A stretch of DNA of 47,371 nt from an uncultured Treponema sp. (GTDB lineage: Bacteria; Spirochaetota; Spirochaetia; Treponematales; Treponemataceae). The DNA is taken from contig CAMOEE010000001.1 in NCBI GenBank assembly GCA_946611835.1, positions 1 through 47,371 on the forward strand, written 5' to 3'. Of the stretch, positions 1,422-31,069 are shown one piece after another (within the stretch, counting starts at the first letter, position 1; each line of letters starts with the position of its first letter). The notes under the pieces were generated by a model. It made no database searches, was not told the DNA's origin, and saw only the letters and a list, made by a program, of their open reading frames with translations. The position numbers and the translations under genes were made by a program.

Positions 1422-2651
1422 TTAAACTTCAACTTCTCCATTCATTAATTTTGGAAGAAGTTTATCGCGGGCAGATTGAAGAAGTTGAATTTGATTCTGT
1501 AATGATTTTATTTTATCAAAATAACGAGCGGCTAGTTTTGAAAAATTTTCAAGTAAAGATTCTGGTGGAATAATTATTGGCATTGACTTTACAATCTTTG
1601 AATTAATCGCTGTAGAAATTGCAGATGTACTACCAAGAGAATCATAATGAAAGTTTTTCAAATATAAATATATGTATTCGCGAATAAACTTATTATCTGT
1701 TACAAAATGGGCAATTGCTTCATTTGTTGTCATCTCTTCTGTTGTTATAGAAACTCTTCCAACAGTTAGCTTAAAACTAAGCAAAACAGTATTTTCTGGA
1801 ATGATTTTTACATTTTTTGACTCGATAGCTTCATTTGTAAGATTTTCTGATGTTTGAAAAATAAATACTCCAGAGTTGCCCATATCGGCAATTGAAATCC
1901 ATTTTTTGCCAATATTTCCTTTTGAAAACCATTTAGTTTCATTCCTTGGCGGAGTTTTTCCTATTGTTATTTCAAAGTAGTCTTCAGCCCTAACTCTCTT
2001 CCACCCCTCTGGCACACCATCAACAATCTTTACATTTTCATGGCCAGGGAAGTTGAGTTTTACAAACCATTCTTTGTAGAGCTTCTGTGCTACCTCTTCC
2101 AAAAGTTTTATCTGCTTGCGGTTGTTTTCTATGAGGTCATCGTATGCAGAAAGAATTCCAGCGATTTTTTGTTGGGTTTCTAGTTGAGGACAAGGAAATT
2201 GAAATTGTTTAACCAAGTCTATTGTTAATGCAGGTTGAGCAGACCCTATTGTTCTTGCCCAGATTGTTTTTTGTCCTTCTGCTGAGTTAATGTAATAGAA
2301 TATAAATTGAGAGTTTACATTTTCAGAAATATCTTTTAACCAAATTAAATTTCCATCTTTAAAATAAAATGTTTCATCTTTGACCAAATACGGGATTCCT
2401 AGTGTTACACCAACTCCTGTTATCAATAAATCATTCTTTTGGGGAACTCCATAATTCATTTTCATTTTTCTATATAAATCATTACTGATGAATAATTGTT
2501 CTGAAAGTTCTTCACCTCGATTTTTTTCAATGATTTCTTTTTGGCGATAAAATGGTATTCCTGTTTTTGTATATTGATTAGCAAAAACTCTTTTACTCGA
2601 GGTTACAGTTGCAATATCTCCAAGTCTAACTTTCTTCCACTCAGTTTTCAT
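1422..2651 (-). CDS. hsdS: Type I R-M specificity subunit with two target recognition domains
   Basis: WKKVRLGDIA start, P..ETQQKIAGILSAYDDLIENN spacer helix, VPEGWK second repeat, RDKLLPKLMNGEVEV end. Confidence 0.95.
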   Translation of the reverse strand: MKTEWKKVRLGDIATVTSSKRVFANQYTKTGIPFYRQKEIIEKNRGEELSEQLFISNDLYRKMKMNYGVPQKNDLLITGVGVTLGIPYLVKDETFYFKDGNLIWLKDISENVNSQFIFYYINSAEGQKTIWARTIGSAQPALTIDLVKQFQFPCPQLETQQKIAGILSAYDDLIENNRKQIKLLEEVAQKLYKEWFVKLNFPGHENVKIVDGVPEGWKRVRAEDYFEITIGKTPPRNETKWFSKGNIGKKWISIADMGNSGVFIFQTSENLTNEAIESKNVKIIPENTVLLSFKLTVGRVSITTEEMTTNEAIAHFVTDNKFIREYIYLYLKNFHYDSLGSTSAISTAINSKIVKSMPIIIPPESLLENFSKLAARYFDKIKSLQNQIQLLQSARDKLLPKLMNGEVEV

Positions 2652-2671
2652 TTTTCACCATCCATTTTATA

Positions 2672-2790
2672 GAATTGCGTTAGCAATTCCGAATCTGTGT
2701 GACAATTCGGGGGCGTTGCGGGGGTTGCCCCCGCAGAGAGGGTAGCGGAAAACGCCGCAGGCGGTTGGAGCGAGGGGGAGACTTCCCCCT
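2672..2790. repeat. GC-rich multi-hairpin intergenic element (REP/MITE-like)
   Basis: Hairpins GAATTGC-GTTA-GCAATTC, GCGGGGG-TTG-CCCCCGC and AGGGGGAG-AC-TTCCCCCT in an AT-rich locus. Confidence 0.55.
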
Positions 2791-2812
2791 TCTTTATTTT
2801 TTCAGTTGCCAT

Positions 2813-3622
2813 TTATTTTCCTTCCGTCAGAAGTTTTCTGTCTTCAACATTTTCCAAAACCTTCATCTGCTGGATAGCGATTTTGTTCAATTTTTCCAAA
2901 CGTTCGTTTTGTGGAAGCCCATCATTAATAAATACTGCATTCAGATTTTCCATATTGCTAAGACAAATCAGCTGATTTATTGTCGCATAATCGCGAATGT
3001 TTCCTTTTAATTCTGGATTTGCTTCCCGCCACTCTTTTGCGGTAACACCAAACATAGCGACATTTAGCATATCTGCTTCATCTGCATAAACAAAAGATTT
3101 TTGAGCGGGTGTAAGCTCCGGCGGAATAAGATTCTGCTTTATAGCATCTGTATGAATACGATAATTGATTTTTGCAAGTTCACGTTTTGCACTCCAGCCA
3201 AGCTGTTTTTGTTCTTCTTCCTTTAAGCGCTGGAATTCTTTTACAATATAGATTTTAAATTCAGGACTAATCCACATTGCAAATTCAAAAGCAATGTCTT
3301 TATGTGCGTATGTACCACCATAGCGACCTGCTTTAGCCTGCAGACTTATAGCATTTGTTCTTTCAACAAATTCTTTTACGCTAATCTTAAAACTATTTAA
3401 TCCAGATTGACTTTTAATTATGGCGAATTCGCCATAATTAAAATTTGGGTTATAGACTTGTTCCCAAATTCCAATATATTCCAGAGTATTTCGGTTTCTG
3501 AGCCAGTCTGTTATAAAGAAATCTCCGTCTTTTGCTTTTAGCATATCAGTAAGACAAAAATAGTCTTCGTTATTAACCTGAACTACTGTAATCTCTGTAT
3601 CTTTTACATTAACTTTTTGCAT
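2813..3622 (-). CDS. KilA-N domain DNA-binding protein
   Basis: DYFCLTDM, DWLRNRNTLEY, GRYGGTYAHKDIAFEFAMWISPEF motifs. Confidence 0.88.
   Translation of the reverse strand: MQKVNVKDTEITVVQVNNEDYFCLTDMLKAKDGDFFITDWLRNRNTLEYIGIWEQVYNPNFNYGEFAIIKSQSGLNSFKISVKEFVERTNAISLQAKAGRYGGTYAHKDIAFEFAMWISPEFKIYIVKEFQRLKEEEQKQLGWSAKRELAKINYRIHTDAIKQNLIPPELTPAQKSFVYADEADMLNVAMFGVTAKEWREANPELKGNIRDYATINQLICLSNMENLNAVFINDGLPQNERLEKLNKIAIQQMKVLENVEDRKLLTEGK
3412..3443. repeat. Perfect 32-bp palindrome inside the KilA-N gene
   Basis: TTTTAATTATGGCGAA|TTCGCCATAATTAAAA. Confidence 0.95.
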
Positions 3623-5096
3623 TCTCTGCTCCAGCTACAATTTCCCAATGGCCGCCCTTATCGGCACCAACACGGCGGATAATACCTTCATTTTGCATTT
3701 CTGCAAGCATTTTTTTAACAGTTGTATGGCCAATATCAAGCATAGTTACTAATTTTGAAATTGTAACATTTGAATCTTTATTTATGGCTTCTAATATCTG
3801 TTGGCACTTTTCTGGCCACTTTTCTGGCCACTTTTCTGGCCACTTTATTGTTTTCTGGTCACTTTTCTGGACATGTTCTATAATTTTCTCCCCAGTTTTC
3901 TGAGAACTTTCGTCCGGCATTGGCTCAACTCCATAATTCATATTCTTAAAAGTAACACTAAAAGAATATGGATTGGAATTGAACACAGGAAGGTTTTCTT
4001 CTGTATAGTTTGGTGCAAATTTAACTGCGTCCATAATTTTTCTGAATCCACTGCCACGGCGTTCCATAAAATCCATGCGGGTAAGCAGGTCAGCAATTAC
4101 GGGATTTCGTCTTGTGGAAACTACATTCTCAAGCTTCTGATCCTGCACGGGAATTCCGTCGTACATTCCACCCGGGTTCTGAATTACAAGGCGGTCATCA
4201 AAAATATCAATATGAATTTCGCTTCCTAAAACACCATAATCACGATGAACAAGCGCATTTACCATTGCCTCGTGAATTGCACGCTCGGGAAAGTTTTCTT
4301 TATTAACTCGTGTTGTAGGAAGTTTGTACCAGATTTTCTGGTTATACAGTTTTATAAAACCTTCACCTTCGTTTAAAAGCTGCAAAATGCTTCCGCTAAA
4401 TTCCTTATCATCAATTGCATCATAAGAACTAGGTGCTTTTGTAAGCCCGTTCCATCTTGTACAGAAAATACGTGAATGAAAGAAGGGACAGACATCAGTA
4501 AACAGGGCTCCAGCATTTGTCAAAAAGTCATCTTTTGTTTTTAATCCGAAAGAATAATAATCCTGTGGTTCAATTCGTTTTCCTGTGCGATTGTAGTAAA
4601 GAGATTCAAAATAGGTAAAACTAAAATCTTTTGCTTCGTATTCAGATTTAAGCGTATCCCAGGTTTTATTTGTTCCTTTAAGAATCAGCTCATGCAAAAT
4701 TGGAGTATCAGCCTGAACGCTGGAAGAACCTGCTCTGATGAATGTAATCTTTGTTGAATTTTCATTCAGATAATAAGGAGTATTTAAGCCGCCAGAAACT
4801 TTTAATACAAGAACTGTATTTCCATCCACTGTGTCTGGTTCAAGAATAAATTCTGGAATTGGGGATATTCTGTCTTTAATACATTCAGTAATAAATTCAA
4901 TTTCTCCCTGCAAATCTGCTATAGGGCAATACTGGCGGTTTTCATCATCAATACCAAAAATCAAAGCACCGCCGATTCCGTTTGCAAATGCACAGACACT
5001 TTTGAGCCAGCTTTTAGTTTTTTTATGTTCAACTTCGCGCTTAAAGTCGCATTCTGTATGTTCAAGCTTAAACTTGCTTAAAGATAAGTTTTCCAT
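3609..5096 (-). CDS. AlbA_2 (Schlafen-like) + HATPase_c_4 + C-terminal HTH protein
   Basis: ECDFKRE...KSVCAFANGIGG, EAMVNALVHRDY, NPGG, RRNPVIA, ERRGSG, IRRVGADKGGHW. Confidence 0.85.
   Translation of the reverse strand: MENLSLSKFKLEHTECDFKREVEHKKTKSWLKSVCAFANGIGGALIFGIDDENRQYCPIADLQGEIEFITECIKDRISPIPEFILEPDTVDGNTVLVLKVSGGLNTPYYLNENSTKITFIRAGSSSVQADTPILHELILKGTNKTWDTLKSEYEAKDFSFTYFESLYYNRTGKRIEPQDYYSFGLKTKDDFLTNAGALFTDVCPFFHSRIFCTRWNGLTKAPSSYDAIDDKEFSGSILQLLNEGEGFIKLYNQKIWYKLPTTRVNKENFPERAIHEAMVNALVHRDYGVLGSEIHIDIFDDRLVIQNPGGMYDGIPVQDQKLENVVSTRRNPVIADLLTRMDFMERRGSGFRKIMDAVKFAPNYTEENLPVFNSNPYSFSVTFKNMNYGVEPMPDESSQKTGEKIIEHVQKSDQKTIKWPEKWPEKWPEKCQQILEAINKDSNVTISKLVTMLDIGHTTVKKMLAEMQNEGIIRRVGADKGGHWEIVAGAENAKS
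3805..3846. repeat. In-frame 12-bp tandem repeat, 3.5 copies, encoding KWPE
   Basis: CACTTTTCTGGC x3 + CACTTT; degenerate copies follow to about 3872. Confidence 0.9.
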
Positions 5097-5099
5097 GAA

Positions 5100-6953
5100 T
5101 TACGCCTCCAGCCCTAGTTCTTTCAGATTTGCATTTATCGTTGCCATAAGGTTATTACTTTCGTCCTGAAGTTTATTAAGTTCTACATGAATCTCTTTCA
5201 TGCGTTCTTCAAAGTTTTCGTCATCTTCCAGAACTTCTGCAACGCCAACATAAGCACCTGGAGTAAGGGAATAATTTTTCTCTGCAATTTCTGCACGGGT
5301 AGCGATTTTACAAAGACCTGCGATATCAGCATAAGTGCCATCGCCAAATTTGTCTGTGAGCCAGATTGCCTGTTTTATTATTTCTTCATTTTCCTTTATA
5401 TTGGCAATCATGTCTTCATTAGCCTGTTTAATGGCTTTCTTCGATTTGCGGTCTGCTTGGGCTTCTGCCTTCTGTGCCGTCTCTTCACAAATCTTAATCT
5501 GCTCCTGTGTGATTGCTAAAATTTCATGAAGATGCTCAATACTATTACATTCTGTGAGTAAGTCTCTTTTCTCCAAATCGTCTATGAATAAAGCTCCTGC
5601 ACGGATAGCATCGAAGTATTCTTCAAGAACAGTCTTGTACTTATCAATTTCTCCGCAATAAAGATGAACAATGCTGGTAAGATTTTTAATCTGCCATTTT
5701 GTCCATTCGTTTAAGTTGCGGTCTACGACAGTAAAATAATTACGGGCATCTATAAAAAGCACCTTGTTTTTAAGTTCATCCTTTTTGCCTTTATCAAAGA
5801 ACCAGAGGGTACAAGGAAGACTAAGCGTATAAAAGAAGTTATTTCCAACACTGAGGATTACATCTACATCACCAGTTTCTACAAGCTTCTGGCGGATGTC
5901 GCGGTCTGCATGCTGGCTGTCTGTTGCAGAGGAAGCCATAACAAAACCTGCACGACCGGTTTCATTCAGATATGCATAAAAGTAACTAATCCAAAGATAG
6001 TTTGCATTTCCAATTTCCTTTGTTTTTTCATTGTAGCCGGGAAGCCCGAAAGGAAGGCGGCCTGCATTAAGAGCAGCTTCGTATTTTACTTTGTTTACAT
6101 TGAACGGCGGATTAGCCATTACAAAATCACATTTACCTTCAAGTTTGTGATAATCGTTGTAGAAGGAATTTGCTTCGTCTCCGCTGATGATTTTTGCATT
6201 AAGGCCGTGAACTGCCATGTTCATCTTACAAAGCTTTGCATTGAACTCAACTTTTTCCTGTCCAAAGAAAGTGAGTTTGTCACTGGCGTTGATTCCATTT
6301 GCATTTACAAAGTCGCCTGAGCTTACGAACATACCACCAGAACCACAGGCAGGATCAAGAATCTTTCCATGTGTCGGCTGAATAATATTTACAATCATTC
6401 TTACAAGAGATTTTGGTGTAAAGAAAACGCCGTCATCACTGGCGATATTCTTTGCAAACTTGTTTAAGAAATATTCATAAATGCGGCCGATTACATCATC
6501 TTTAATTTCGTTGAGGGCATCATTGTTGAAAAGGCGGAGAAGGTCTTTGAGTAAATCATTCTTGAAAATTGTCTGATAGTTTTTTGGCAGAATACCGGAA
6601 AGGTCCGGGCATTCTTTTTCGATTGCTTCCATAGCCTTATCTACAGCTTCTCCAAGATTTTTGTCTTTTGGAAGATTTAAGAGATAATCATAGCGGGCGT
6701 TTTCTGGAAGGAAGATTGCACTTTTTGATTTAAAATCACTTGATTCAACCGGAAGTTTTACTCCGTTGCGGCTTGGACGGTCTTTGAGAATTTCTGCTTC
6801 AACATATTTAAAACGGGTAAAAGCATAGCGAAGGTAAATGAGCCCTAGGACAGGCATGCAGTATTCCTGCGAACTGAGTTTTGAACCTTCGCGTAAAGCA
6901 TCTGCGCTTTCCCAGAGGTCGTTTTCTAGTGATTTTATGTTGTTTTGTGACAT
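5100..6953 (-). CDS. hsdM: Type I R-M N6-adenine methyltransferase
   Basis: LWESADALR, YEYFL, FFTP, DPACGSGG (motif I), NPPF (motif IV); start moved to ATG 6953 with AAGGA upstream. Confidence 0.96.
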   Translation of the reverse strand: MSQNNIKSLENDLWESADALREGSKLSSQEYCMPVLGLIYLRYAFTRFKYVEAEILKDRPSRNGVKLPVESSDFKSKSAIFLPENARYDYLLNLPKDKNLGEAVDKAMEAIEKECPDLSGILPKNYQTIFKNDLLKDLLRLFNNDALNEIKDDVIGRIYEYFLNKFAKNIASDDGVFFTPKSLVRMIVNIIQPTHGKILDPACGSGGMFVSSGDFVNANGINASDKLTFFGQEKVEFNAKLCKMNMAVHGLNAKIISGDEANSFYNDYHKLEGKCDFVMANPPFNVNKVKYEAALNAGRLPFGLPGYNEKTKEIGNANYLWISYFYAYLNETGRAGFVMASSATDSQHADRDIRQKLVETGDVDVILSVGNNFFYTLSLPCTLWFFDKGKKDELKNKVLFIDARNYFTVVDRNLNEWTKWQIKNLTSIVHLYCGEIDKYKTVLEEYFDAIRAGALFIDDLEKRDLLTECNSIEHLHEILAITQEQIKICEETAQKAEAQADRKSKKAIKQANEDMIANIKENEEIIKQAIWLTDKFGDGTYADIAGLCKIATRAEIAEKNYSLTPGAYVGVAEVLEDDENFEERMKEIHVELNKLQDESNNLMATINANLKELGLEA

Positions 6954-7044
6954 GTAGGATTTCCTTTGCTTTTTTCTACTTGTAATTTCCATTATATCAC
7001 AATTTTCGCCCATTTTATAGCGGTAATCTCCACTATACCTCCCT

Positions 7045-11218: not shown

Positions 11219-11698
11219 TTAGCTCAAAAAATCTTTTAGTTCTGAGAGCGCTTTTTTCATTATGATTTTTGAATTGCTATAGCTTATTTTGAGGATTTCG
11301 GCCGCCTCTTTGAGGGTTTTATTGTCGTAATAGACCAAAACGACCAAAGCCCTCGCCCGCTCTTCGAGACGCATAAGGGCGTGCCCAAGTTCGGTGAGGG
11401 TTTCTTCGGTGAGTATATTGTCGAGCGTTTCATCTTTGTAGGCGATATCTTCATCCAGCTCGGAATGTTGCTTTCGCACCCGCCAGAAATCAATCAGCGT
11501 GTTGTGCGCAATCCGGTAAATCAAGGTGGACGGGGAGGCTTTTGACGGATCAAAAGATTCGGACTTGTCGTAAAACTTGAGGAAAACATTTGCCGTTAAA
11601 TCTTCGGCGTCTTCCTCGCTTATCCGTTTCCCTATAAAGTAATAGAAGACCTTTCGGTTGTACTCCTTATAAATTACGTCCTTCTCGCTTTGTGTCAC
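11219..11698 (-). CDS. ECF RNA polymerase sigma factor
   Basis: 159 aa; region 2 DAEDLTANVFLK...IAHNTLIDFWR; region 4 TLKEAAEILKIS; GTG start with AAGGA. Confidence 0.9.
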   Translation of the reverse strand: MTQSEKDVIYKEYNRKVFYYFIGKRISEEDAEDLTANVFLKFYDKSESFDPSKASPSTLIYRIAHNTLIDFWRVRKQHSELDEDIAYKDETLDNILTEETLTELGHALMRLEERARALVVLVYYDNKTLKEAAEILKISYSNSKIIMKKALSELKDFLS

Positions 11699-11720
11699 AA
11701 ATTGTCCTTATTATTCAGGC

Positions 11721-11927
11721 TTACGGCAACTTTTTTTTATTGCTGATAGCTTCGATTAAGCCTGCCGCATTCACCATTTCTAACTCTTCATCATTAAGCT
11801 CGAAAGTGCTCGGATTTGACTGAAGAGAGTCGATATAGCTTCGTGCGCTCTGAATAGCGAAATTCATTACTGAATTTCCCTCAAATTTCTGATAATCAAA
11901 CAGTCTTTTAAGTTTTTTGTCGTTCAT
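11721..11927 (-). CDS. Small protein with double-glycine-leader-like motif (ELNDEELEMVNAAG); candidate anti-sigma factor or peptide substrate
   Basis: GAGGTG RBS before ATG 11927; 68 aa; directly upstream of and co-directional with the ECF gene. Confidence 0.75.
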   Translation of the reverse strand: MNDKKLKRLFDYQKFEGNSVMNFAIQSARSYIDSLQSNPSTFELNDEELEMVNAAGLIEAISNKKKLP

Positions 11928-11960
11928 AATATCACCTCTCAAGTCAGTTTTCATTTCGGT

Positions 11961-11992
11961 TATTTATACGAACGAAAACCAAAAAAGGCTAA
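11961..11992 (-). promoter_or_regulatory. Putative ECF promoter, copy 1
   Basis: TTAGCC-N16-CGTATAAATA on the minus strand; same motif and spacing at 20576-20607. Confidence 0.75.
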
Positions 11993-12085
11993 TCTTTTTG
12001 AAAGTTTTTTTGAAAAATTCTTCGCCTCCAAAATCACAAACAAACAAGATAGGTCATTATAAAGTTTTTCTCAAATTTTATAAAG

Positions 12086-12145
12086 TATCCCGCTGATTTT
12101 TATCCCGCTGATTTTTATCCCGCTGATTTTTATCCCGCTGATTTT
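12086..12145. repeat. 15-bp perfect tandem repeat, 4 copies
   Basis: TATCCCGCTGATTTT x4 in the divergent promoter region upstream of the TolC gene. Confidence 0.95.
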
Positions 12146-12192: not shown

Positions 12193-13785
12193 ATGAAATT
12201 AGGTGCCATTCTGGTTCTTTTTTTAGCAGGCGCCCTTTGTTTTGCACAGGAAGAAAAGCCGCTTTTTAATTACGAAATCGAACCAGAACACAAAACATTT
12301 TCTCTTGAAAAGGCCATCACTCTTGCAGTCGAAAACAATTACGACATTCAAAAACAGCGGTACGCCTTGCAGGAAGCACACTCTCAGTTCCTGCAGGCAA
12401 AAGGAGCTACTGACATAGAAGCTGGCGCACAGGCACAGTATCAGCGCAAACAAAATCCTGTCGATGAATTTGACCCCAACTATCAGTACGGATATTCATG
12501 GCTCACTCCCGGTAACGATTACGGCGTTTATTCAAGCAACACGCTCACGGAGCAGACGGCCGGCTCCGTCTTCTTGAGAAAACTATTCAGCTTCGGCCTT
12601 GAGACAAAGCTCTCATACACAGTCCAGAGGCAAAAGAATACGCCCTACTATTCTTACGGGAAGAATTTCGACACAAAAAAATACGAGCAGGAAGAGGCCC
12701 GCACCAATGGAGAAATCAAGCTGGAGCTTTCACTTCCTCTGTTCAAGTCTTTCTGGAATTCCCTCACCTCTCTTCAGATCGATGCCGCAAAAAATTACAT
12801 GGACCAAATGGAATTCATGCTGTCCGACACAATCTCAAAACAAATCATAAATGTCACCAAGCTTTACTGGAATTTCTTCCTCACTTACAAGAATGTGGAG
12901 CAGCTTGAAATCCTGCAGAAAAAAATCGAAGAGCGAAACAAAAGCATGGACGACCTGATTCGGGCAGGCGTACGCTCAAAAAATGACTTGCTGGCAATGC
13001 AGGTCAATGTGAACGAAAACCGAAAGCAAGTCCAGGACGCAAAGATTCAGCATAATCAGGCAAAAATGGAGCTTGTCACGGCCCTGGGAATCAGCGACAC
13101 AAGCTTAATCGGAGACCCGGATGACTCATTTGACAGGGTAGAACTGAAATTAATTGTTCCGCCAAAAGTAGAGGAGCTTACAGCCGAAATCATCAGTAAC
13201 ATTGTCGAAAACAGGAGCGACCTGAAAGCCCTTAAAAAACAGGTTGATATCGCAAGCCTGCAGGTCCGTCTGGCAAAGGCTGATTCACTGCCCGACGCAA
13301 ATTTGAATTTCGGAATCGGAACAACAGGAACGACATATTCAGACAGCGCAGACAAATTCTTTACATCCGGGCTATGGAATAACCACGGGCTTAATATCAG
13401 CGGTGCATTGAGTGTCAGCGCAAAACTCGGGAACAACATCAAGAAAGGAGCCATCGAAAAGGCAGAGTCGGCCTACAACAATGCCCTGGCCGACTACAAC
13501 AAAACAAAGAATACGCTAAGTCTCCAGATACATAATGCCGCCGAAAAACTTGAGATTTACAAGGCTCTCGTTCTGGATGCCGATGAAGGTCTCAAGCTCA
13601 ACCTGAGCCTTTACGAAAACGAGCAGAGAAGGTTCTCGGCCGGCCTGATTACCGTAGACAATCTTCTCTCCCAGGACCAGAAATACATTTACGCAAAGAC
13701 TTCTTACTACCAGCTTCTGGGAAACTACATGCAGGCAATTCTGGAATTCAAGTATTACACCGCAAACATGATCGGACTCAAATAA
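12193..13785 (+). CDS. TolC-family outer membrane efflux protein
   Basis: Signal peptide, SLEKAITLAVENN, LELSLPLF, RAGVRSKNDLL, RSDLKA, RFSAGLIT; two outer-membrane-efflux repeats. Confidence 0.9.
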   Translation: MKLGAILVLFLAGALCFAQEEKPLFNYEIEPEHKTFSLEKAITLAVENNYDIQKQRYALQEAHSQFLQAKGATDIEAGAQAQYQRKQNPVDEFDPNYQYGYSWLTPGNDYGVYSSNTLTEQTAGSVFLRKLFSFGLETKLSYTVQRQKNTPYYSYGKNFDTKKYEQEEARTNGEIKLELSLPLFKSFWNSLTSLQIDAAKNYMDQMEFMLSDTISKQIINVTKLYWNFFLTYKNVEQLEILQKKIEERNKSMDDLIRAGVRSKNDLLAMQVNVNENRKQVQDAKIQHNQAKMELVTALGISDTSLIGDPDDSFDRVELKLIVPPKVEELTAEIISNIVENRSDLKALKKQVDIASLQVRLAKADSLPDANLNFGIGTTGTTYSDSADKFFTSGLWNNHGLNISGALSVSAKLGNNIKKGAIEKAESAYNNALADYNKTKNTLSLQIHNAAEKLEIYKALVLDADEGLKLNLSLYENEQRRFSAGLITVDNLLSQDQKYIYAKTSYYQLLGNYMQAILEFKYYTANMIGLK

Positions 13786-13814
13786 ATCAGGCTGTTCTGT
13801 CAAGCTATTGACAG

Positions 13815-14984
13815 CTATTCCTGATCGAGTTTTACGAATTTTCTGTCCTTGAAGACTTTTGGCGTGAGTTTCCTGTACTGAACTGCCCCCGTGTTAGAGA
13901 AAGTATAGCTTCCGGCCGCCTCAGTCCAGAATCCCTGATGAAGGCTGTGGGCTATCTCGCTGGGGTCTGCAGAACCCGCTTTTTTGATTGCACCGGCAAG
14001 AACCATGAGCGCATCATAGGCCTGCAAAGCTTCCTGGTCAGGCTCCACCCCGAATTTTTCCTCGAAAGAAGAATAGAATTCCTCAAACTTAGGATTGTCA
14101 CAGTCGATATCAAAATTGGAGACTGCAAAAATCTTTCCGTTTTCGCTTTCCGGGAGATTATCGGCCAGAATAGGATCATCGAAGGGGTCAGAGCCGACAA
14201 TCGGACAATTGATTCCGTTTTCCCTGACAGTCGAAATAACCTGCTGAATCAGAGGCATCCTGCCGGCAAGGAAAATTGAGTCGAACATGAAATTCGTCTT
14301 CCATCGCGCAGCCATCCGGTCAAATTCCTGCTGAGATGTTGTCATGTCAAAGCTGTCACGGCTTATTATGTTGATTCCCCGCTTGCTGCAGTTTATCTCG
14401 AAGGCGTTTGACAGGCTGATTCCCGAAGTGTTCTCAAGATAATAGATGATTATGTTCTTCAAGCCCTTCTGCTCGCAAATCCGTGAAATCTCATCGGCAA
14501 AATCACTGTCGCTCGGCATGTTGCTGAAAATGAGCGGATTGTTACGCTCCGTGAGGCTATGAATCGTGGAGATAAAATTGAACATGAGGATTCCGTAATA
14601 CTGGTAAATCAGTGAGCATCGGAGGGAAATATCAGAATATCCGTGACCGACTACCGCACAAATCTCATCATCTGAGGTGATCTGATATGCCATGGTCATT
14701 CCCTTGATTGTAGTTCCGCCGTCATCAAATTTGATAAGCTCCATTTTGGCAGGCATCAGGGCCTCGGAGTTGATTTTTTCCTGGGCAAGGATGGCACCTT
14801 CCCACATCTTACTCTGGTTCTGCACGAAACTGTTCGCCACGGCAATCTTGACCGTACCCTTATTGTAAAGCCTGTTTACTGCAGAACGACGCTCCTTTAC
14901 CGGGTCATCGTCATCACAAGAAGAAAACAAGGCACCCATAAAAAGAAATCCGATAAATATAAATAAAAGTTTCAGTTGTCTCAT
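13815..14984 (-). CDS. LivJ/LivK-like periplasmic solute-binding lipoprotein
   Basis: Lipobox FSSC, GAILAQEKIN, AVVGH, QAYDALMVLA.AIKKAGS; 15 bp after the ABC gene. Confidence 0.85.
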   Translation of the reverse strand: MRQLKLLFIFIGFLFMGALFSSCDDDDPVKERRSAVNRLYNKGTVKIAVANSFVQNQSKMWEGAILAQEKINSEALMPAKMELIKFDDGGTTIKGMTMAYQITSDDEICAVVGHGYSDISLRCSLIYQYYGILMFNFISTIHSLTERNNPLIFSNMPSDSDFADEISRICEQKGLKNIIIYYLENTSGISLSNAFEINCSKRGINIISRDSFDMTTSQQEFDRMAARWKTNFMFDSIFLAGRMPLIQQVISTVRENGINCPIVGSDPFDDPILADNLPESENGKIFAVSNFDIDCDNPKFEEFYSSFEEKFGVEPDQEALQAYDALMVLAGAIKKAGSADPSEIAHSLHQGFWTEAAGSYTFSNTGAVQYRKLTPKVFKDRKFVKLDQE

Positions 14985-14999
14985 AATAATAACCTCCTG

Positions 15000-17567
15000 C
15001 TAAATATTCTGCCTTCTCGCAAGCTGAGCGAAATATCCGTCCTGCTTCATCAGCTCCTCGTAGTTACCCTGCTCCACTACCTCACCGTCTTTCATTACAT
15101 AGATTTTGTCGGCGTTGATGATTGTCGAGAGCCTGTGAGCGATTATGATTCGGGTGACTTTAAGCTCGTCAAGGCTCTTTCGGACGGCAATCTGGGTAAG
15201 ATTGTCAAGGGCACTCGTAGCCTCATCAAAAATCAGGACGCTTGGGCGACGGATAATCGCACGGGCAATAATCAGCCTCTGCAGCTGGCCGCCCGAAAGA
15301 GTTGCTCCTCCTGCCGGAATCATCGTAAACATTCCCATAGGCATTTCCGCGATATCCTTGTCAAAAGAAACCTTTCTGGCGGCTTCCCATGCGTCAGCTT
15401 CTTTGAGGCCTGAGCTTCCTACTATATTCTGCAGGATTGTCCCCTGCAAAACCGTGTCATTCTGAAGGACAACGCCCAGCTGCCGCCTGAGCGAACCGAT
15501 ATCAACCGCCGAGATATCCTGGCTGTCAAAGAAAACGGCACCAGACTCAGCTTTCTCAAAACCAAGGAGCATACGCATGAGGGTTGATTTTCCTGCACCG
15601 CTCGTTCCGACAATGGCAACGAACTCTCCCTCTCTGATGCTCATGTTCACATCTTTAAGAACAAGAGGAGCATCGGGGGCATAGCGGAAATTAAGGTGGC
15701 TGATTTCGATGTTACCCCGGAGCTTGTCAATCGGTGGTTTAGAAGACTCTATCTCAGGAAGAGCATCAAGAATAGGGCGTATTCGTTTTGAAAGGGGAAT
15801 GACATTGCGGATTTGGAGCAAGGCCCCCGCCACACCAAGAAAAGCTCCCTGGAAGGAAGAATAGGCGCTCAAGAATGCCATGAAAGTACCCGTGGTGAGT
15901 CCGTTGATAGCCTGAATCTTCAGTCCACGACCATACAGATAATAGATGATAATGCTCACGACCGTTGGATAGACCGTATTAATCAGTGAGTTTACGATTC
16001 CAACCAGACCAAGAGAATAGGCAATTTTCATCTGACGGATATACTCACCCGACCACTGGGCAAAAAATCTTTTTTCGGAATGAGAATTCGTGATTTTTTC
16101 AATGCCGTTGAGAAACTGCAGGAGCATACCCTGAATCTTACCCTGACAGTCAATCAGCATCTTTTCCCACTTGTATGTGATGAAACAGAAAAGGGCAGAA
16201 ATGATAATGGGGAAGATACAGAAGAGGATTCCCCATTTGGCGAAATAGCCCGAGAACCTGAAGCACTGGAACAAATAGACGAAACTGAAAATGAAATTCA
16301 TGAAGACCGAAAGGACAATGTTGAAAATCTGCTTCCGGATTTCGGCGATGGTCATGGTGCGGGCGGCCAGGTCACCGGAAGAGAAGCCCTTGAAAAAATC
16401 AACCGGGAGCTTTAAAAGCCTGTCCATGACTGCCGCCTCAAGATCGCTGTCGGCCTTGGTCTCCATTCGCATGTTGGCGAAATATTTTGCCAGGTTTCCA
16501 ATCATCGCGGAAATATTACAGATGAAAACAAGGAAACAAATCTGAACCGCCTGACTTTTTGCCGCCTCAGGGATTACATTGTCGATGAAGTTTCGTGTAA
16601 TCAGAGGGGTGATGAGGCCGATTAATGTGCAGAGAAGACCGATGATGACAAAGCGGGCGATATCACGCTTGATGTCGGCGAGGACAAAACGACAGATTGA
16701 CTTGATCGAGATTTTTTCGGCCTGCATGGTCTTGTAGGCCATAATTGCCATGGGGTAAACCTGCCTTGCGTTCTTCTTCGTGACAGGAATCTCAAGCTGG
16801 TCACTGGGATCGATAATCTTATAGCCTGAGGAATTTTTGTTTTTGATGAGGGCAACAGGAATCAGGTTTTCGGAAGCATCATTTTCGATTGAGATGTTGA
16901 TGTCACCCTCTTTTTTGTAGAAACCGATTAAATGACCGTTGTCTTCCTTGTACCAGTTTTCACGGAGGACAACTTCACGCACTCGAATCGTGTTATCCTT
17001 AGCAAGCTTTTGTACGCCTGATTTGTTGGACTCGTATTTTTTGTCGGGGAGCTGCCTGATTGAAAAGCCGCCCATATGTTTTGCGACAATCTTAAAGACC
17101 TGAACGACAGGAAAATCATCGGGCCTGTAAAGCCTTGTGTCCGTCACATTTTTGTTAATGACAGAAGCAATATTTGCAAGCGCATCCGAAAAAGCGTAGT
17201 CCGAGGCTCTCTGCTGCTTCATCGAGCGCAGATTTCCCATGGCGCGCATTGAGTCCGCATTGATGAGGATTTCCTTCTGCCATTTGGAAGCATTTTCTGC
17301 AAAATTCGGGTCTTTCGGCTTGGAAAATTCTACCTCAGTTTCGTTAGTTCCCGTGAGGATGATGTCATATTTTTTGTTGCCTGAGATATTGAGGAAGCTC
17401 TCACCCTCAACGAAATTCGCAACCTCATGCCTGGCTCCAGTCCGGCCATCCGGGAGTTTTTTTACAAGAAAGAGATAACAGTGCCCGCAGAGTACCTTGA
17501 TTTCGTAAGGCGAGCCGTCAAGGGTGAGGTAATTCGTATTGTTGATTTTGTAAATTTTCTTTTCCAT
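15000..17567 (-). CDS. NHLM-type export ABC transporter permease/ATPase (no catalytic peptidase)
   Basis: Degenerate N-terminal domains, WYKEDNGHLIGF, RLLKLPVDFF, Walker A GTSGAGKST, LSGGQ, DEATSALD. Confidence 0.9.
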   Translation of the reverse strand: MEKKIYKINNTNYLTLDGSPYEIKVLCGHCYLFLVKKLPDGRTGARHEVANFVEGESFLNISGNKKYDIILTGTNETEVEFSKPKDPNFAENASKWQKEILINADSMRAMGNLRSMKQQRASDYAFSDALANIASVINKNVTDTRLYRPDDFPVVQVFKIVAKHMGGFSIRQLPDKKYESNKSGVQKLAKDNTIRVREVVLRENWYKEDNGHLIGFYKKEGDINISIENDASENLIPVALIKNKNSSGYKIIDPSDQLEIPVTKKNARQVYPMAIMAYKTMQAEKISIKSICRFVLADIKRDIARFVIIGLLCTLIGLITPLITRNFIDNVIPEAAKSQAVQICFLVFICNISAMIGNLAKYFANMRMETKADSDLEAAVMDRLLKLPVDFFKGFSSGDLAARTMTIAEIRKQIFNIVLSVFMNFIFSFVYLFQCFRFSGYFAKWGILFCIFPIIISALFCFITYKWEKMLIDCQGKIQGMLLQFLNGIEKITNSHSEKRFFAQWSGEYIRQMKIAYSLGLVGIVNSLINTVYPTVVSIIIYYLYGRGLKIQAINGLTTGTFMAFLSAYSSFQGAFLGVAGALLQIRNVIPLSKRIRPILDALPEIESSKPPIDKLRGNIEISHLNFRYAPDAPLVLKDVNMSIREGEFVAIVGTSGAGKSTLMRMLLGFEKAESGAVFFDSQDISAVDIGSLRRQLGVVLQNDTVLQGTILQNIVGSSGLKEADAWEAARKVSFDKDIAEMPMGMFTMIPAGGATLSGGQLQRLIIARAIIRRPSVLIFDEATSALDNLTQIAVRKSLDELKVTRIIIAHRLSTIINADKIYVMKDGEVVEQGNYEELMKQDGYFAQLARRQNI

Positions 17568-17569
17568 AG

Positions 17570-19783
17570 TTACATCATCCTAACCAGTTCGCTGTACAAG
17601 CCGCCCTTTTCCACCAGCACATCGTGCGTACCCCGCTCAACGATGTTGCCGTGGTCAAGAACGATGATTTCATCGGAGTCTCGTATTGTCGAGAGCCTGT
17701 GGGCAATAATGATGCTGGTGCAGCCCCGCCTTCGGATGTTCTGATCAACAAGCTGCTCGGTGATTGCATCAAGCGCACTTGTGGCCTCGTCCATAATGAT
17801 GATTCTGGGGTTTGTGGCAAGAGCACGGGCAATCTCAAGACGCTGTCTCTGACCGCCGCTGAAATTCTTACCGCCCTCGCTGACAAGTGAAAAATATCCG
17901 CCTTGCCGTGAGGTGATGTCATCATGAATGCAGGCGTCTTTTGCGGCCTGAATATAGACTTCTTCTGGAATCGTCGTGTTCCACATGGTGATGTTGTCTT
18001 TGACCGTTCCCTCGAAAAGCGAGATGCTCTGGTTGACAACTGCAACCGAAGCTGCGAAAGTCTTCCGGTCAATCTCGCTCAGAGGTTTTCCGTCAAACAA
18101 AAGCTCCCCGCTCCACAAAGGATAGGTGGCGCTGATTAGCTTTCCGATTGTGGACTTGCCGCTTCCTGTGGCTCCGACCAGCGCGATTCTTTTTCCAGGA
18201 GTGAATTCAATATTCAAATTTGAGATTAGAGGGGCCGTAAGCGGGGAATAGCCGAAAACAGCATTCTTAATGGAAATATAGCCCTCAAGCTTTTTGATTG
18301 GCGCATATTCTTTGCTGAAAGAATCAGAATAAGATTTTTCGTCAGTTTTCTGAGAGGCATCTTTCGTCTCAAAATCATCCTTGAACATTTTTGGAATCGG
18401 ATATTCCATTACATCATCAATTCGCTGCATGTCGGCATTAGCGGAAAGAAGGGATGCACCTAGGCTCAGGAAGGAATTGATTGGGGAAGAAAAATGTGCC
18501 AGAAGAATCTGAAATGCCATGAGCATACCGACCGTAAGATGACCGTCCATAACCCGGATTGCGCCGAGACCAAGAATCAGGATTCCCTGAATCTGGGAAA
18601 TTGTCTCCGGCACGATTGAATTCGCCGTGTTGGTCTTAACGAGCCGCTGATTCTCCAGAATAAGCTTTGCCTGCTGGCCGGACCACTGCATGAAAAAGTC
18701 ATTTTCTGAGCCGGAAGCCTTAAGAGACTCAATCATCTCGATTCCCGACATAGTTATACCGCTGAGTTTTCCGCCTTCCATCTCGATTTTAAATGACTTA
18801 TTCTTGACCCTCTCGCTCGTAATCTTAAAAATCACTACGAGCAGGATTGTGAGCGACACCGAAATCACTGTGAGGGGAATATCATACATGAGCATTAAAA
18901 CGAGGAAGAAAACCGTGCTGAAGAGGTTAATTATAACCCCGATAAGCTGCCCGGAGACAAGGCTGGCAATCGAATCGCAGGAAGAAATTCGGTTACAAAG
19001 CTCACCCGGAAGCCTCTGAACAAAAAACTGGAGCGGCATCCTGAAAATATGGTCGATGAATTTTGAAGCCGAAGAAAGGCTCAGTCGTACCTGAAAGCGC
19101 ATCAAAACCGTATTCTGAATCGCCTGTAATATAGTAGAAAGCACGCAGGTAACGGCCATTACAAAAAGCAGGGGTTTTAAATGCCCCATGGAATTTTTGA
19201 CAAGAATCTCATCAACAAAAAATCGTGAGAAAGTAGGATAAACAAAACCGGGAATAAAATAGAGGAAACTTAAGAATCCGAGGAAAGTAAAGATTGAAGA
19301 AAGCCCATTGAGCCTTTTTTTGAGCCTGTTCCAGATTTTAGGCTTTTCGCCGCCCAGAAGGAAATCAGGCCCCGGCTCAAAAGTGAGCACGACACCGGTA
19401 AAGGACTCGTCAAATTCGTCCATGTCAACGGAACGCCGGCCCAGGGCCGGATCATTTATAACGACTGAATGGCGCTTAAATCTCTCAAAAACAACGAAAT
19501 GATTGAAATTCCAGAAGATAATTGCCGGCCGGTCAAGCTCACGGAGAGAATCGACTTCCATTTTGAAGCCCTTTGCTTCAAGACCGTACCTTTTTGCAGC
19601 CTTAATAAGGTTGCTGGCCCTCGTTCCGTCTCGAGAGACACCACACTCCATACGAAGTTCTTCCAGTGAAACATATTTGTGATAATAAGAAAGAATCATC
19701 GAAAGGCTTGCGGCGCCGCATTCAAGGGCTTCCATCTGCAAAACCGTCGGTGCCTTTACCTTTTTAAAAAACGGAAATTTCAT
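17570..19783 (-). CDS. NHLM-type ABC transporter with C39 peptidase domain
   Basis: PTVLQMEALECGAASL (catalytic Cys), CGVSRDG, WNFNHFVV (His), GATGSGKST, FSGGQRQR. Confidence 0.95.
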   Translation of the reverse strand: MKFPFFKKVKAPTVLQMEALECGAASLSMILSYYHKYVSLEELRMECGVSRDGTRASNLIKAAKRYGLEAKGFKMEVDSLRELDRPAIIFWNFNHFVVFERFKRHSVVINDPALGRRSVDMDEFDESFTGVVLTFEPGPDFLLGGEKPKIWNRLKKRLNGLSSIFTFLGFLSFLYFIPGFVYPTFSRFFVDEILVKNSMGHLKPLLFVMAVTCVLSTILQAIQNTVLMRFQVRLSLSSASKFIDHIFRMPLQFFVQRLPGELCNRISSCDSIASLVSGQLIGVIINLFSTVFFLVLMLMYDIPLTVISVSLTILLVVIFKITSERVKNKSFKIEMEGGKLSGITMSGIEMIESLKASGSENDFFMQWSGQQAKLILENQRLVKTNTANSIVPETISQIQGILILGLGAIRVMDGHLTVGMLMAFQILLAHFSSPINSFLSLGASLLSANADMQRIDDVMEYPIPKMFKDDFETKDASQKTDEKSYSDSFSKEYAPIKKLEGYISIKNAVFGYSPLTAPLISNLNIEFTPGKRIALVGATGSGKSTIGKLISATYPLWSGELLFDGKPLSEIDRKTFAASVAVVNQSISLFEGTVKDNITMWNTTIPEEVYIQAAKDACIHDDITSRQGGYFSLVSEGGKNFSGGQRQRLEIARALATNPRIIIMDEATSALDAITEQLVDQNIRRRGCTSIIIAHRLSTIRDSDEIIVLDHGNIVERGTHDVLVEKGGLYSELVRMM

Positions 19784-19837
19784 TTAATTCAGTATAGTTT
19801 AATTTAAGTAAAGTGTCAGTAGAAATCTAAAAACGAG

Positions 19838-19873
19838 AAAAGCTCCCCTGATATGAACCAAAGGAGCTTTTTT
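19838..19873. terminator. Intrinsic terminator
   Basis: AAAAGCTCC...GGAGCTTTT inverted repeat with T runs on both strands. Confidence 0.7.
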
Positions 19874-19922
19874 GCTGAATATTAAAAAACAGTAAGAATC
19901 CGGGCCTTAATGCTCATTCCCA

Positions 19923-20330
19923 TTAATTGGTCGGCTTTCTCACACGAATTGTAAAGATTGGGGCTGTCTCGTCAGCCTGACTGAAGGCCTGGTCCTCGAT
20001 GATTTCGATGTAATACTGATTTCCTTCTTTGAACCTGCCAAGATAAACGCAATTTGGATCTGTTATCTGATCGCAAAATCCTCGCTGCTATTCCAGGTAT
20101 AGCTAAAGCGCGTATCTCGTCCAAGGTCATAAGCAATGTGAAAGAAATAATCCTCCATTTCTTCAAAGTCCATTTCATCAAGCGAATGGGTATCCGGGAG
20201 GCTGACTTCTGTAGTGTGTTTCCATATGTCAAAAGAGTTTTAATATTATTTTCAAGAATTTCCGACTAATAAACGCATTAAAAAAGTACGATTCCCGAAC
20301 AGAGAAGTCCGGCCAGAAAAGCCCCGTGAC
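19923..20330 (-). pseudogene. Broken 3' remnant of an unidentified gene
   Basis: Protein-like fragments in different frames: SLDEMDFEEMEDYFFHIAYDLGRDTRFSYTW and GRFKEGNQYYIEIIED...IFTIRVRKPTN*, ending before the terminator. Confidence 0.4.
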
Positions 20331-20536
20331 TGCAGGAATTCCATCTGTTCCTGCATCTTCTCCACCTCAAGCTCAGGATAAAATGTATGGATTGCCGCAA
20401 ATGCCGATTCGGGATTCGTTGCGGCATCAATAATCATTGAAATCTTCTCTATATCAAAATTCTCAGTAACTCTCGCAATTGTTTCTTCTGCGACACCCTT
20501 CCGTGCCAGAATCGTCCTCATTTCTGAGTTTGTCAT
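20252..20536 (-). CDS. Candidate Nif11/NHLP-like precursor N-terminus, apparently truncated
   Basis: AAGGAG RBS, ECF-type promoter upstream, acidic helical first ~70 aa, lies ahead of the C39 transporter; no GG cleavage motif, and the tail after MEFLQS changes composition. Confidence 0.5.
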   Translation of the reverse strand: MTNSEMRTILARKGVAEETIARVTENFDIEKISMIIDAATNPESAFAAIHTFYPELEVEKMQEQMEFLQSRGFSGRTSLFGNRTFLMRLLVGNS

Positions 20537-20575
20537 ACCTTTTTTTGCTCCTTCGTATTTTTACCGGTTTTCTTT

Positions 20576-20607
20576 TATTTATACGAAGAAAACTTAAAAA
20601 AGGCTAA
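20576..20607 (-). promoter_or_regulatory. Putative ECF promoter, copy 2
   Basis: TTAGCC-N16-CGTATAAATA, same boxes and spacing as 11961-11992. Confidence 0.75.
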
Positions 20608-20637
20608 AAAAATGGCGGCAAAAATGCTTGCCGCCAT
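20606..20637 (-). terminator. Terminator of the chemoreceptor gene
   Basis: ATGGCGGCAA/TTGCCGCCAT stem followed by a T run on the minus strand. Confidence 0.75.
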
Positions 20638-20664
20638 GATATTTTTGATTTTCCCCTGCCTTAC

Positions 20665-22731: not shown

Positions 22732-22954
22732 TTTAGTACCCTATCAAAAAAAATATTTAAGTGGATTGTACACACAATTTAAAGAAAATTTCAATATATA
22801 TCAACAGCCTATTTGAATATTCTTACATTTTTTGCACTTTTTTAGCATATTACGCATATAGCCAAAGATTTTTTGACACGGAAAAATACAAGAAGAAGAC
22901 ACAAGAACGATTATGCCAAGAGCGAAATGGCTAAAAAAATGCTATAATATCTTG

Positions 22955-23785: not shown

Positions 23786-23786
23786 A

Positions 23787-24905
23787 CTAACGGGCCTGCT
23801 GAGCCGGCTGCTGAACCGTAAATTCCTCGCCAACTCCGAGCAGTTTTTTCTTGATTGTCGGAAGAATCAGAGAGATTGGTCTTCTTGAATCGGTAGTGAC
23901 TCTCGCCGTACAAATGTAGCCTGAGCCAATTTTTTGGGCAGGACCTTTTGAAGATGACCATTTGTAGCCTGAATATGTAGTCGGGTCAGGGATAATGCTT
24001 ACCTTGACCTCAATCGGGTTCTGAATCTGATGGAATGTATTCGCAAGGCTCATGTTCTGGAGGCTGGAAACAAGATAATTGTCGCTGACAGGAAACTCGG
24101 AGACATCAGTGATAAGCCCCTGAATAAAACCGTATTCCTCCTGCTTGACAGTGGTCGGGGCCAGACCGATTTTCATGCCCGGGCGGATTTTCTTTCCTTC
24201 CATTGCCGGAAAGTAAACGAGGGCGCCGATTGTAGCCTCATCGCTGCCTGACTCAATCACGGCAATCGTGCTTCCAGGCTGAACATAATCGCCCCTTCGC
24301 ACAGGAATCTCCATTATTCGGCCGCTTGCCGTCGCAGAAACCTGGGTCGCTGTCTGGTAACTATCGTTCAACAGAAGAATCTGCTGTTTTGTCTCTGTAA
24401 TCTGCTGCTCAATATTCAGCTCTGTCTGGCGGGAGTTGAGGTATTCCTGCTCAGTGATAAGTCCCTGGTCAAAAAGACTCTTCATCATCTGGGGCTTTGA
24501 GGCACCGGTCTTACTCGCAGACTGAATCACGGCCTGCATCTTGATGTAGCCGTCAAGTTTCTTTTCGTTGACCTTGATTTGGTCAAGAATATCCTGTCTT
24601 TCGATTCGCGCTATAATCTGACCATTATGAACCATATCTCCATGATTCACGAAAATATTTTTTACCGCACCCTGATTCGCATATTTTACGCTTGTAATGA
24701 AGTCGCTGTTAACAAGAACTCCCGTTCCGCTGACGGTATCAGGTACAGAACCAAATATACCCCACAGAAGGGCCACGAAAACGATGATAGCCACTGAAAT
24801 CAAGGCAAGGATACTCGATGGTTTTACGACCGTCATTGTCTGATCAAGCTGATCGAGAGAAGCGATTCTATCCAAAGCTGATTTTCTGAAAATTGCGCGT
24901 TTCAT
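23787..24905 (-). CDS. NHLM-type secretion protein (HlyD membrane fusion protein)
   Basis: IFRKSALDRIASLDQLD, single TM, GKKIRPGM, TVKQEEYGFIQG, SGYKWSSSKGP. Confidence 0.92.
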   Translation of the reverse strand: MKRAIFRKSALDRIASLDQLDQTMTVVKPSSILALISVAIIVFVALLWGIFGSVPDTVSGTGVLVNSDFITSVKYANQGAVKNIFVNHGDMVHNGQIIARIERQDILDQIKVNEKKLDGYIKMQAVIQSASKTGASKPQMMKSLFDQGLITEQEYLNSRQTELNIEQQITETKQQILLLNDSYQTATQVSATASGRIMEIPVRRGDYVQPGSTIAVIESGSDEATIGALVYFPAMEGKKIRPGMKIGLAPTTVKQEEYGFIQGLITDVSEFPVSDNYLVSSLQNMSLANTFHQIQNPIEVKVSIIPDPTTYSGYKWSSSKGPAQKIGSGYICTARVTTDSRRPISLILPTIKKKLLGVGEEFTVQQPAQQAR

Positions 24906-24943
24906 AGGTTAACTATAATTTAAAAATCAAGAAGGTGAAAGTC

Positions 24944-25504: not shown

Positions 25505-25507
25505 GGC

Positions 25508-26902: not shown

Positions 26903-26905
26903 GGC

Positions 26906-27502: not shown

Positions 27503-27511
27503 TATCTGCTC

Positions 27512-27817: not shown

Positions 27818-28040
27818 AACAGAATATTTTATCCTAAAATTTTAATTTGACAATAAAAATTTTTAAGAATCAAACATCCTATAATCAATGTTCTAACCCC
27901 TTAAGTTTAGAACCACAACAAAAATTTTATGCCAGCAAAAGGAGAAGATACTCCCACTCCTCATCCAGCTGGATAAATTATAGCACATAATAAAAATTTT
28001 TTACAGACATATTTAAGAATATTTATAAAAAATTTTATAA

Positions 28041-28780: not shown

Positions 28781-28788
28781 CAGTCATT

Positions 28789-29757: not shown

Positions 29758-29758
29758 C

Positions 29759-31014: not shown

Positions 31015-31069
31015 AAATTTTCCCACCTTTTTGAATTTTTTATCCCCTGCGGGATTTCAGCAAAAATCA

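Follow-up and report, generated by a model that had tools for sequence, protein, structure and literature searches.

The window, the whole stretch of 47,371 nt of DNA from an uncultured Treponema sp. that was analysed, encodes a soluble protein of 68 aa that very probably binds and inhibits the ECF sigma factor encoded directly downstream of it. Contact of the same protein with the C39 peptidase-containing exporter of the neighbourhood is probable. It carries a C39-type leader helix with Ala-Ala in place of Gly-Gly. It is proposed, tentatively, that ECF-tied soluble anti-sigma factors of gut Clostridia and rumen Treponema swap Gly-Gly for Ala-Ala, that one cut both reports the spare capacity of the exporter and writes a ClpXP degron, and that peptidase-containing ABC exporters (PCATs) double as signalling proteases.

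Small gene, sigma factor and shared promoter

The ATG of the small gene is preceded by a GAGG/AGGT ribosome site, and the product reads MNDKKLKRLFDYQKFEG...FELNDEELEMVNAAG-LIEAISNKKKLP. A 77-aa reading from 11954 was rejected: it has no ribosome site, and the homologues begin at the Met of the 68-aa form. The ECF gene follows on the same strand after 22 nt. The order given in the initial annotation, small gene first and ECF sigma gene second, agrees with the reading frame, the ribosome site and this gap. No hydrophobic span is present in the protein; transmembrane helix and outside sensor domain are absent. The assembly that holds the window has a size of 2.48 Mb and is 70.6% complete. Coordinates are listed in Table 1.

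Table 1. Features of the window and, in the last three lines, of related loci
Feature	Position	Strand	Assignment
ECF sigma factor, 159 aa, subfamily tied to the small protein	11219..11698	-	Pfam Sigma70_r2 and r4; TIGR02937 over cut-off; subfamily profile A4
Small-protein gene, 68 aa	11721..11927	-	ORF; predicted soluble anti-sigma factor with C39-type leader helix
Residues 57-68, variable charged tail	11724..11759	-	mean conservation 0.18
Residues 43-56, ELNDEELEMVNAAG, leader-like helix	11760..11801	-	L-12, L-7, V-4; Ala-Ala/Gly replaces Gly-Gly (the slash marks the putative cut); latent C-terminal Ala-Ala
Residues 1-35, LFDYQKFE helix-turn-helix region	11823..11927	-	predicted sigma-binding part (co-fold)
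Predicted ECF promoter TAGCC-N16-CGTATA before the small gene	11965..11991	-	general form TWGCC-N16-CGTATA
Sigma-70-like site, possible basal promoter	12056..12084	-	weak: 3 sites found against 2.3 expected
TolC-like outer-membrane efflux protein	12193..13785	+	PF02321
Periplasmic-binding-type lipoprotein	13815..14984	-	PF13458; recurs in Treponema-type clusters
NHLP exporter subunit without active peptidase	15000..17567	-	TIGR03797, 766 bits, over cut-off
NHLP exporter subunit with C39 peptidase	17570..19783	-	TIGR03796, 979 bits, over cut-off; Q16, C22, H95, D111 present
Broken cargo precursor that retains leader residues 1-71 but neither GG site nor core	20252..20536	-	intact GG precursors at related loci are 52-62% identical
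Second predicted ECF promoter copy, before the cargo precursor	20580..20606	-	motif match
NHLP HlyD-type adaptor	23787..24905	-	TIGR03794, 285 bits, over cut-off
Second-family member	L100:1489-1704	-	
Second-family member	L137:9068-9271	+	
Second-family member	L181		

The small protein is, by its sequence, a member of a large unnamed family. There are 49 near homologues, the three named ones from Treponema; a profile from 31 close homologues gave 347 clusters at 50% identity. No meaningful Pfam or NCBIfam match was found among 132 members, no match by PDB sequence or Foldseek (model pLDDT 71; Foldseek library only), and no profile or fold match to the described anti-sigma families (ASD I-III, NepR, FlgM). 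The ESM Atlas gave 30 unnamed clusters (best three 0.92), and its sole other lead was a lantibiotic leader, at 0.80.

Three parts are distinguished. The front, LFDYQxF..N..L...I, has a mean conservation of 0.58 across the family and the leader-like helix ending in Ala-Ala-Gly one of 0.71; a short variable tail follows. Helices are predicted at residues 3-9 and 19-36. Distances between fronts correlate with those between the paired sigma factors (rho 0.40), as against 0.04 for the helix and -0.06 for the tail, the pairs being not independent. A second small-protein family has an ADFxKGSNHKE front and the shared end EL..ELxxVxAAG and lies beside divergent ECF genes; it occurs in 4 of 301 genomes, and three of the four carriers adjoin an NHLP exporter. 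The fronts of the two families do not align with each other. At L010:9305-10792 (+), in genome G191, a divergent small-protein domain stands in frame with a lipoprotein-like ORF of 495 aa, divergent from an ECF gene; this is either a real fusion or a lost stop.

Of 272 confirmed GTDB loci the best 80 were analysed, some ten of these being near-identical; in 68 of the 80 an ECF gene of one subfamily lies at most 600 nt from the small gene, in either order, and an ECF gene adjoins the small gene in 42 of 47 metagenome loci. Within the family of G201, the genome that seeded the search, 12 of 301 genomes matched the small-protein profile, nine at full length; the three weak matches are one second-family member, one divergent copy beside an exporter and one chance match. 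The weak match in G482 sits inside a 488-aa ORF and was left out of the count. The sigma profile (E<1e-45) recovered the same nine full-length carriers and, in addition, G467, whose ECF factor has a second-family partner and in whose genome no C39 domain was found. For unpaired small genes, 10 of 12 loci were examined genome-wide: the sigma factor is present in five and absent in five, and in four of the five genomes that have it, it lies within about 3 kb of the exporter.

Co-folding of the small protein with the sigma factor, proposed earlier as a check, gave 0.83, 0.84 and 0.83 for the window's pair, against 0.00 for the best of three controls; ECF/anti-sigma complexes exist in the PDB, and a memory effect on these values is possible. 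Of 157 solved complexes 116 attain the co-fold mark, and of 215 mismatched pairs 2 do so; these counts hold roughly with own alignments. The runs have at least 90% of their contacts in common, with a partner pLDDT of 68-69. Confident contacts on the small protein all fall within residues 1-35; those on the sigma factor comprise residues 13-20, 55-65, 92-124, 135-137 and 151-158, which belong to domains 2 and 4. The list of confident contacts does not include residues 43-56, which are thus uncertain, not necessarily free. Residues 1-35 are therefore predicted by the model to grip domains 2 and 4, and a dual grip of this kind is the pattern of known anti-sigma factors according to the part of PMC7406223 that was consulted.

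The initial annotation had placed a promoter at 11961-11992, and a promoter-like motif is indeed found there (11991-11965). TAGCC-N16-CGTATA has three sites genome-wide, as against 0.14 expected per spacing. One precedes the cargo precursor (Table 1). The third copy lies outside the window at G000:C143:1135 (-), followed by a ribosome site and a hydrophobic ORF of 26-28 aa upstream of a cytidylate-kinase-like gene; this ORF is a putative member of the regulon. In a survey of 67 GTDB loci and three Treponema-type regions (13 duplicates removed, one mismatch allowed), the motif stands upstream of 33 of the 71 small genes. The corresponding counts are 1 of 57 for sigma genes, 8 of 852 for other genes and 4 of 48 for precursors, many of the last lying in arrays behind one promoter. 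The spacer is 16 nt long in 27 of 42 pairings. Small genes located downstream of the sigma gene still have their own motif (20 of 32), and so do 13 of 14 Treponema-type loci, the remaining one being cut by a contig end.

Genome-wide counts of the strict pattern against a reversed control are 12 vs 0 in G201, 9 vs 5 in G296 and 1 vs 3 in G410, with no sites in G191 and G450 (two of the five genomes); the relaxed pattern is at or below control in G129, G189, G015 and G313. One of the 22 strict sites precedes a small gene; GG-leader precursors follow 12, of which 6 were recognised by script and 6 by eye. The motif thus leads to scattered genes for GG-leader peptides, otherwise without annotation, in anaerobes of gut and rumen, these 12 sites being from two genomes. 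Because of its shape and co-occurrence, the motif TWGCC-N16-CGTATA is probably read by the ECF factor. An anti-sigma role, as first suggested for the small protein, is supported by co-folding, gene adjacency, co-occurrence across genomes and the shared promoter.

Contigs from RNA runs of four studies cover 11336-12018, and three span both the small gene and the sigma gene; contigs from two runs extend to 12015-12018, upstream of the predicted ECF promoter. Over 12500-29500 the contigs give patchy cover. The runs were selected for holding this stretch and represent relatives at 90-99% identity; most are labelled bovine or sheep gut, which together with the Treponema homologues marks the window as that of a probable rumen Treponema. 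The contigs are compatible with expression; they give no strand, start, level or single-transcript proof. Between the small gene and tolC, at 12085-12144, a 15-bp unit (ATCCCGCTGATTTTT) stands in four tandem copies.

Elsewhere in the window are a plasmid-type replication remnant at 28789-31026 (-), comprising a ParA-like ATPase, a small partner and a RepA_C-like gene, and type I restriction-modification genes hsdM and hsdS at 1422-7013 (-), with Schlafen/AlbA_2 and KilA-N genes between them.

Leader helix, putative cleavage site and exporter

Substitution of Ala for Gly at P2 strongly slows C39 enzymes. The consensus of C39 leaders is L(-12)xxxE(-8)L(-7)xxxxG(-2)G(-1), and V-4 adds a third anchor (PMC6959990 and PMC6363468, in part). 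The known sites are GG, GA or GS, so that P2 is always Gly, and descriptions of the cleft call it very narrow. In six frames of the 2.48-Mb genome the leader-motif pattern had no match besides the 68-aa protein. Anchors -12, -7 and -4 are L44, L49 and V52, conserved at 96%, 84% and 82%, as in C39 substrates. In 51 homologues L44, V52, A54, A55 and G56 are 82-100% conserved, and the tail averages 18%. The lone genome-wide match and the conserved motif residues beside a variable tail argue against a chance motif. The C39 leader motif noticed earlier therefore stands in its anchors and conservation, with one correction: the register L-12, L-7, V-4 gives the site Ala-Ala/Gly, with Ala, not Gly, at P2.

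This replacement is nearly constant. At P2, 135 of 136 representatives and 83 of 84 locus copies have Ala, whereas 44 of 46 cargo precursors have Gly; the Ala-Ala-Gly counts and the P2 contrast are partly circular, because both sets were selected with motif-bearing queries, although the GTDB scan was seeded on the N-terminal pattern only. The 136 representatives derive from 150 listed, of which 144 have the front motif and 8 are unregistered; 5 locus copies and 9 cargo precursors are also unregistered, and by eye the unregistered rows follow their groups. The P1 residue, too, is Ala (132 of 136) rather than Ser or Gly. Fragments cut in register would end in VNAA, VAAA or VSAA in 106 of 136, x-Ala-Ala is invariant in 51 of 51 homologues, and none of 144 intact proteins ends in Ala-Ala. 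Plain GG occurs in about 1% of members, the G296 copy included. That copy, L139:5331-5690 (-), combines an LFDYQ front, plain GG and a Cys-rich core, with the sigma gene 21 kb away, and is a possible intermediate between cargo precursor and anti-sigma factor.

The exporter is assigned by its NHLP subunits (Table 1). A cognate exporter with an active C39 domain, as double-glycine substrates have, is thereby present, TIGR03796 retaining C22, H95 and D111. In 12 of the 14 Treponema-type loci a TolC-like gene is the small gene's neighbour. TIGR03796 was found in 29 of 301 genomes, namely all nine full-length carriers and 20 of 292 others. In the window's own family 6 of 201 genomes have TIGR03796; all three small-protein carriers are among these six, and the other three also lack the sigma factor. 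The exporter link is one-way: most exporter genomes lack the small protein. The C39 subunit is local in 24 of 80 loci and was found elsewhere in the genome for 46 of 54 others tested (4/4 and 42/50), so that 70 of the 78 carrier loci or genomes tested have an exporter. It is lacking in 8 of 50 genomes of carrier loci (assemblies of 1.3-2.3 Mb). The tie to a C39 exporter put forward earlier is backed by genome co-occurrence and by the shared promoter. Homologues apart from both ECF factor and C39 transporter would have spoken against the original idea; they are mostly not seen, and the exceptions are G467, the 8 of 50 exporter-less genomes and the 5 of 10 sigma-less ones.

No active-site change admitting Ala was found between the C39 domains of carrier and non-carrier genomes (42 vs 19 rows; G249 dropped, and G318 and G479 labelled non-carriers despite the second family). 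On a quick tree the carrier peptidases do not form one clade. In an AlphaFold3 test of another system, GG-to-AA shifted the leader away from the catalytic residues (PMC12184118, in part).

The only recognisable cargo gene of the window is a broken one; it matches intact relatives over 71 residues, then diverges and stops before the GG site. A fusion of an Fe-only hydrogenase-like 4Fe-4S domain and an MCP signalling domain is encoded within the exporter cluster at 20665-22731 (-), and also in L188 and L190. Twelve TIGR03796 matches occur in the 2.8-Mb genome of L068 (G544). In L039, L075, L084 and L085, as many as 8 Nif11-like GG precursors, whose cores are Cys-rich or beta-rich, form arrays beside a radical SAM/SPASM gene and a small gene-sigma pair; these are uncharacterised RiPP clusters.

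Proposed mechanism and rival explanations

The best model, held tentatively, is a slow C39 cut at Ala-Ala/Gly that leaves a C-terminal Ala-Ala, upon which ClpXP destroys the anti-sigma factor. Residues 1-35 would hold sigma domains 2 and 4 and so silence the sigma factor. Residues 44-56 would dock in the leader groove of the C39 domain, and the exporter would cut at Ala-Ala/Gly, slowly because P2 is Ala. The cut would expose C-terminal Ala-Ala (V-x-Ala-Ala) as a ClpXP tag, and degradation would free the sigma factor for transcription of cargo genes. GG cargo from the same promoter would out-compete the anti-sigma factor for the peptidase; the poor P2 would make the latter a weak competitor, and spare capacity of the exporter would therefore be the signal. 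Sigma activity would rise with spare capacity and fall when the exporter is busy or absent, and the anti-sigma gene's own ECF promoter would reset the loop. Docking, cutting, degradation and this sign of control are steps that we infer.

Precedents for the degron exist: C-terminal XAA directs RsgI anti-sigma fragments of Clostridium to ClpXP (PMC12203970, in part), and for sigma-AntA C-terminal Ala-Ala is the ClpXP signal (PMC7142297, in part). A latent XAA degron behind the sigma-binding part is a sequence feature of the small protein. The clpX gene is present in 5 of 5 genomes tested, that of the window included; tmRNA was not found in the 70.6% complete genome. Cutting followed by degradation would explain together why Ala-Ala is strictly kept, why the tail is dispensable and why the front end binds sigma. 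Against it, the invariant Gly itself could serve as P1, giving an AAG end, which is no known degron.

Among the alternatives left by the initial annotation (cleaved, exported or titrated, or a decoy owing to AAG), whole export is disfavoured, the cut is the tentative choice and the decoy is rather unlikely. As an uncut decoy or tether, the protein would dock on C39 or on the dead C39-like domain in the second exporter subunit, P2 Ala would block the cut, and occupancy by cargo would decide whether the anti-sigma factor is held at the membrane, with or without the sigma factor. The recognition anchors L-12, L-7 and V-4, far from the cut site, are all kept, as such docking requires. The decoy retains its share because P2 Ala lies outside GG/GA/GS (135 of 136, as opposed to Gly in cargo), the peptidases have no compensating change and GG-to-AA modelling lost the catalytic geometry. 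Strict Ala at P1 and Gly at P1' would, however, be unneeded, and docking alone gives no obvious sigma release, since the model keeps the part that binds sigma apart from the one that docks. Export of the whole uncut protein once the exporter works, as for FlgM or BtrA, is improbable. The protein is small, TolC and HlyD are present, and BtrA is secreted via type III secretion and antagonises the ECF factor BtrS (PMC10732220, in part); but secretion of PCAT cargo requires the cut and the leader side remains cytosolic (PMC6959990, in part). The earlier analogy to FlgM export is hence disfavoured: by co-folding the sigma-binding residues 1-35 sit N-terminal of the cut, on the leader side, which would be kept inside, and PCATs export only the part behind the cut.

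The same degron might be used by another enzyme, i.e. another protease or a neighbouring radical SAM enzyme would cut or hold the anti-sigma factor and the exporter would be a mere regulon member. G467, with sigma factor and partner but no C39 domain, fits this, as do the radical SAM/SPASM genes of 19 of 83 loci (many near-identical) and the STAS and SpoIIE partner-switch genes that recur nearby; with no radical SAM gene in the window's cluster, and with the exporter so regularly present in carriers, it is considered unlikely. Genes for a STAS anti-anti-sigma factor and two unnamed proteins of 198 and 464 aa lie at 25508-27817 (-), and STAS and the 198-aa family adjoin the sigma and small genes in L071, L077, L207 and L225, which hints at a partner-switch input. 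The STAS and kinase-like genes at 26906-27817 were rejected as main regulator of the sigma factor: STAS occurs in 9 of 83 loci and is not constant. That the small protein stabilises or activates the ECF factor is very improbable; co-folding gives binding and not its sign, and the small gene carries the sigma factor's own promoter, yet both sigma domains are intact and their simultaneous contact is the anti-sigma pattern. Equally little weight falls to a pheromone or bacteriocin precursor, with the tail as exported product and the conserved part as ordinary leader. A conserved front with a hypervariable tail is the usual precursor pattern (PMC2887384, in part), but P2 Gly is absent, no receptor kinase is conserved across loci, the front co-folds with the sigma factor, and the tails (median 18-19 aa, range 8-77, 33-39% charged, Cys 0.3-0.5%) are unlike cargo, which has a median of 73 aa and Cys in 36 of 46. 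An NHLP/Nif11 RiPP or bacteriocin core, either Cys/Ser/Thr-rich or Gly-rich and hydrophobic, is not found in the tail, and the 12 residues after the motif are free of Cys, as noted at the outset. The tail is likely a mask, not a product.

Comparison with known systems

From its sequence the small protein appears to fall outside the described anti-sigma and precursor families and to represent a variant of secretion-coupled, proteolysis-controlled anti-sigma regulation. The part of the Casas-Pastor 2021 supplement that was covered has no entry for C39, Nif11, CGTATA or TAGCC; the consulted parts of PMC8103513, PMC8999054 and PMC7826278 describe no exporter-linked soluble anti-sigma factor of this kind; and a literature search covering few subscription papers returned ECF reviews and unrelated papers, none joining exporter and anti-sigma factor. 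If true, the model would add a new route of ECF control and, per the literature searched, the first type I/PCAT exporter feeding back on transcription via its peptidase, with peptide production matched to export. Removal of the small gene would be a simple lever for switching on silent bacteriocin or RiPP clusters.

RseA of E. coli and RsiW of B. subtilis are proteolysed anti-sigma factors with a latent XAA degron. RsgI of Clostridium thermocellum likewise shares with the small protein N-terminal sigma binding and an internal Ala-Ala which a cut turns into a C-terminal signal for ClpXP (PMC12203970, in part). RseA, RsiW and RsgI, however, are membrane proteins cut by RseP-type proteases upon an outside signal, whereas the small protein is soluble, has no transmembrane helix or sensor and carries its Ala-Ala in a C39 leader helix. 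FlgM, the anti-sigma factor of FliA, leaves the cell whole by a type III machine. The proposed logic of a sigma factor that reports the state of a secretion machine, with an anti-sigma factor co-regulated with cargo, is shared with BtrA/BtrS of Bordetella (PMC10732220, in part). BtrA and FlgM exit whole via type III secretion; in the present case the machine in question is an ABC exporter that contains a peptidase, and the cell would retain the sigma-binding part.

The NHLP/Nif11 export system (Haft 2010, PMC2887384) is represented here by TIGR03794, TIGR03796 and TIGR03797 over curated cut-offs, and related loci have its GG-leader precursors; the small protein differs from these in lacking Gly-Gly and core, and the word 'sigma' is absent from the main text of that paper. 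NepR/EcfG/PhyR and the class II anti-sigma factors (NepR, CnrY) are likewise small, mostly two-helix, ECF-adjacent, under an ECF promoter and governed by molecular mimicry. No sequence or fold match links the small protein to the NepR/CnrY class, and the direction of mimicry differs: NepR is titrated by a mimic of sigma, whereas the small protein would itself mimic an export signal.
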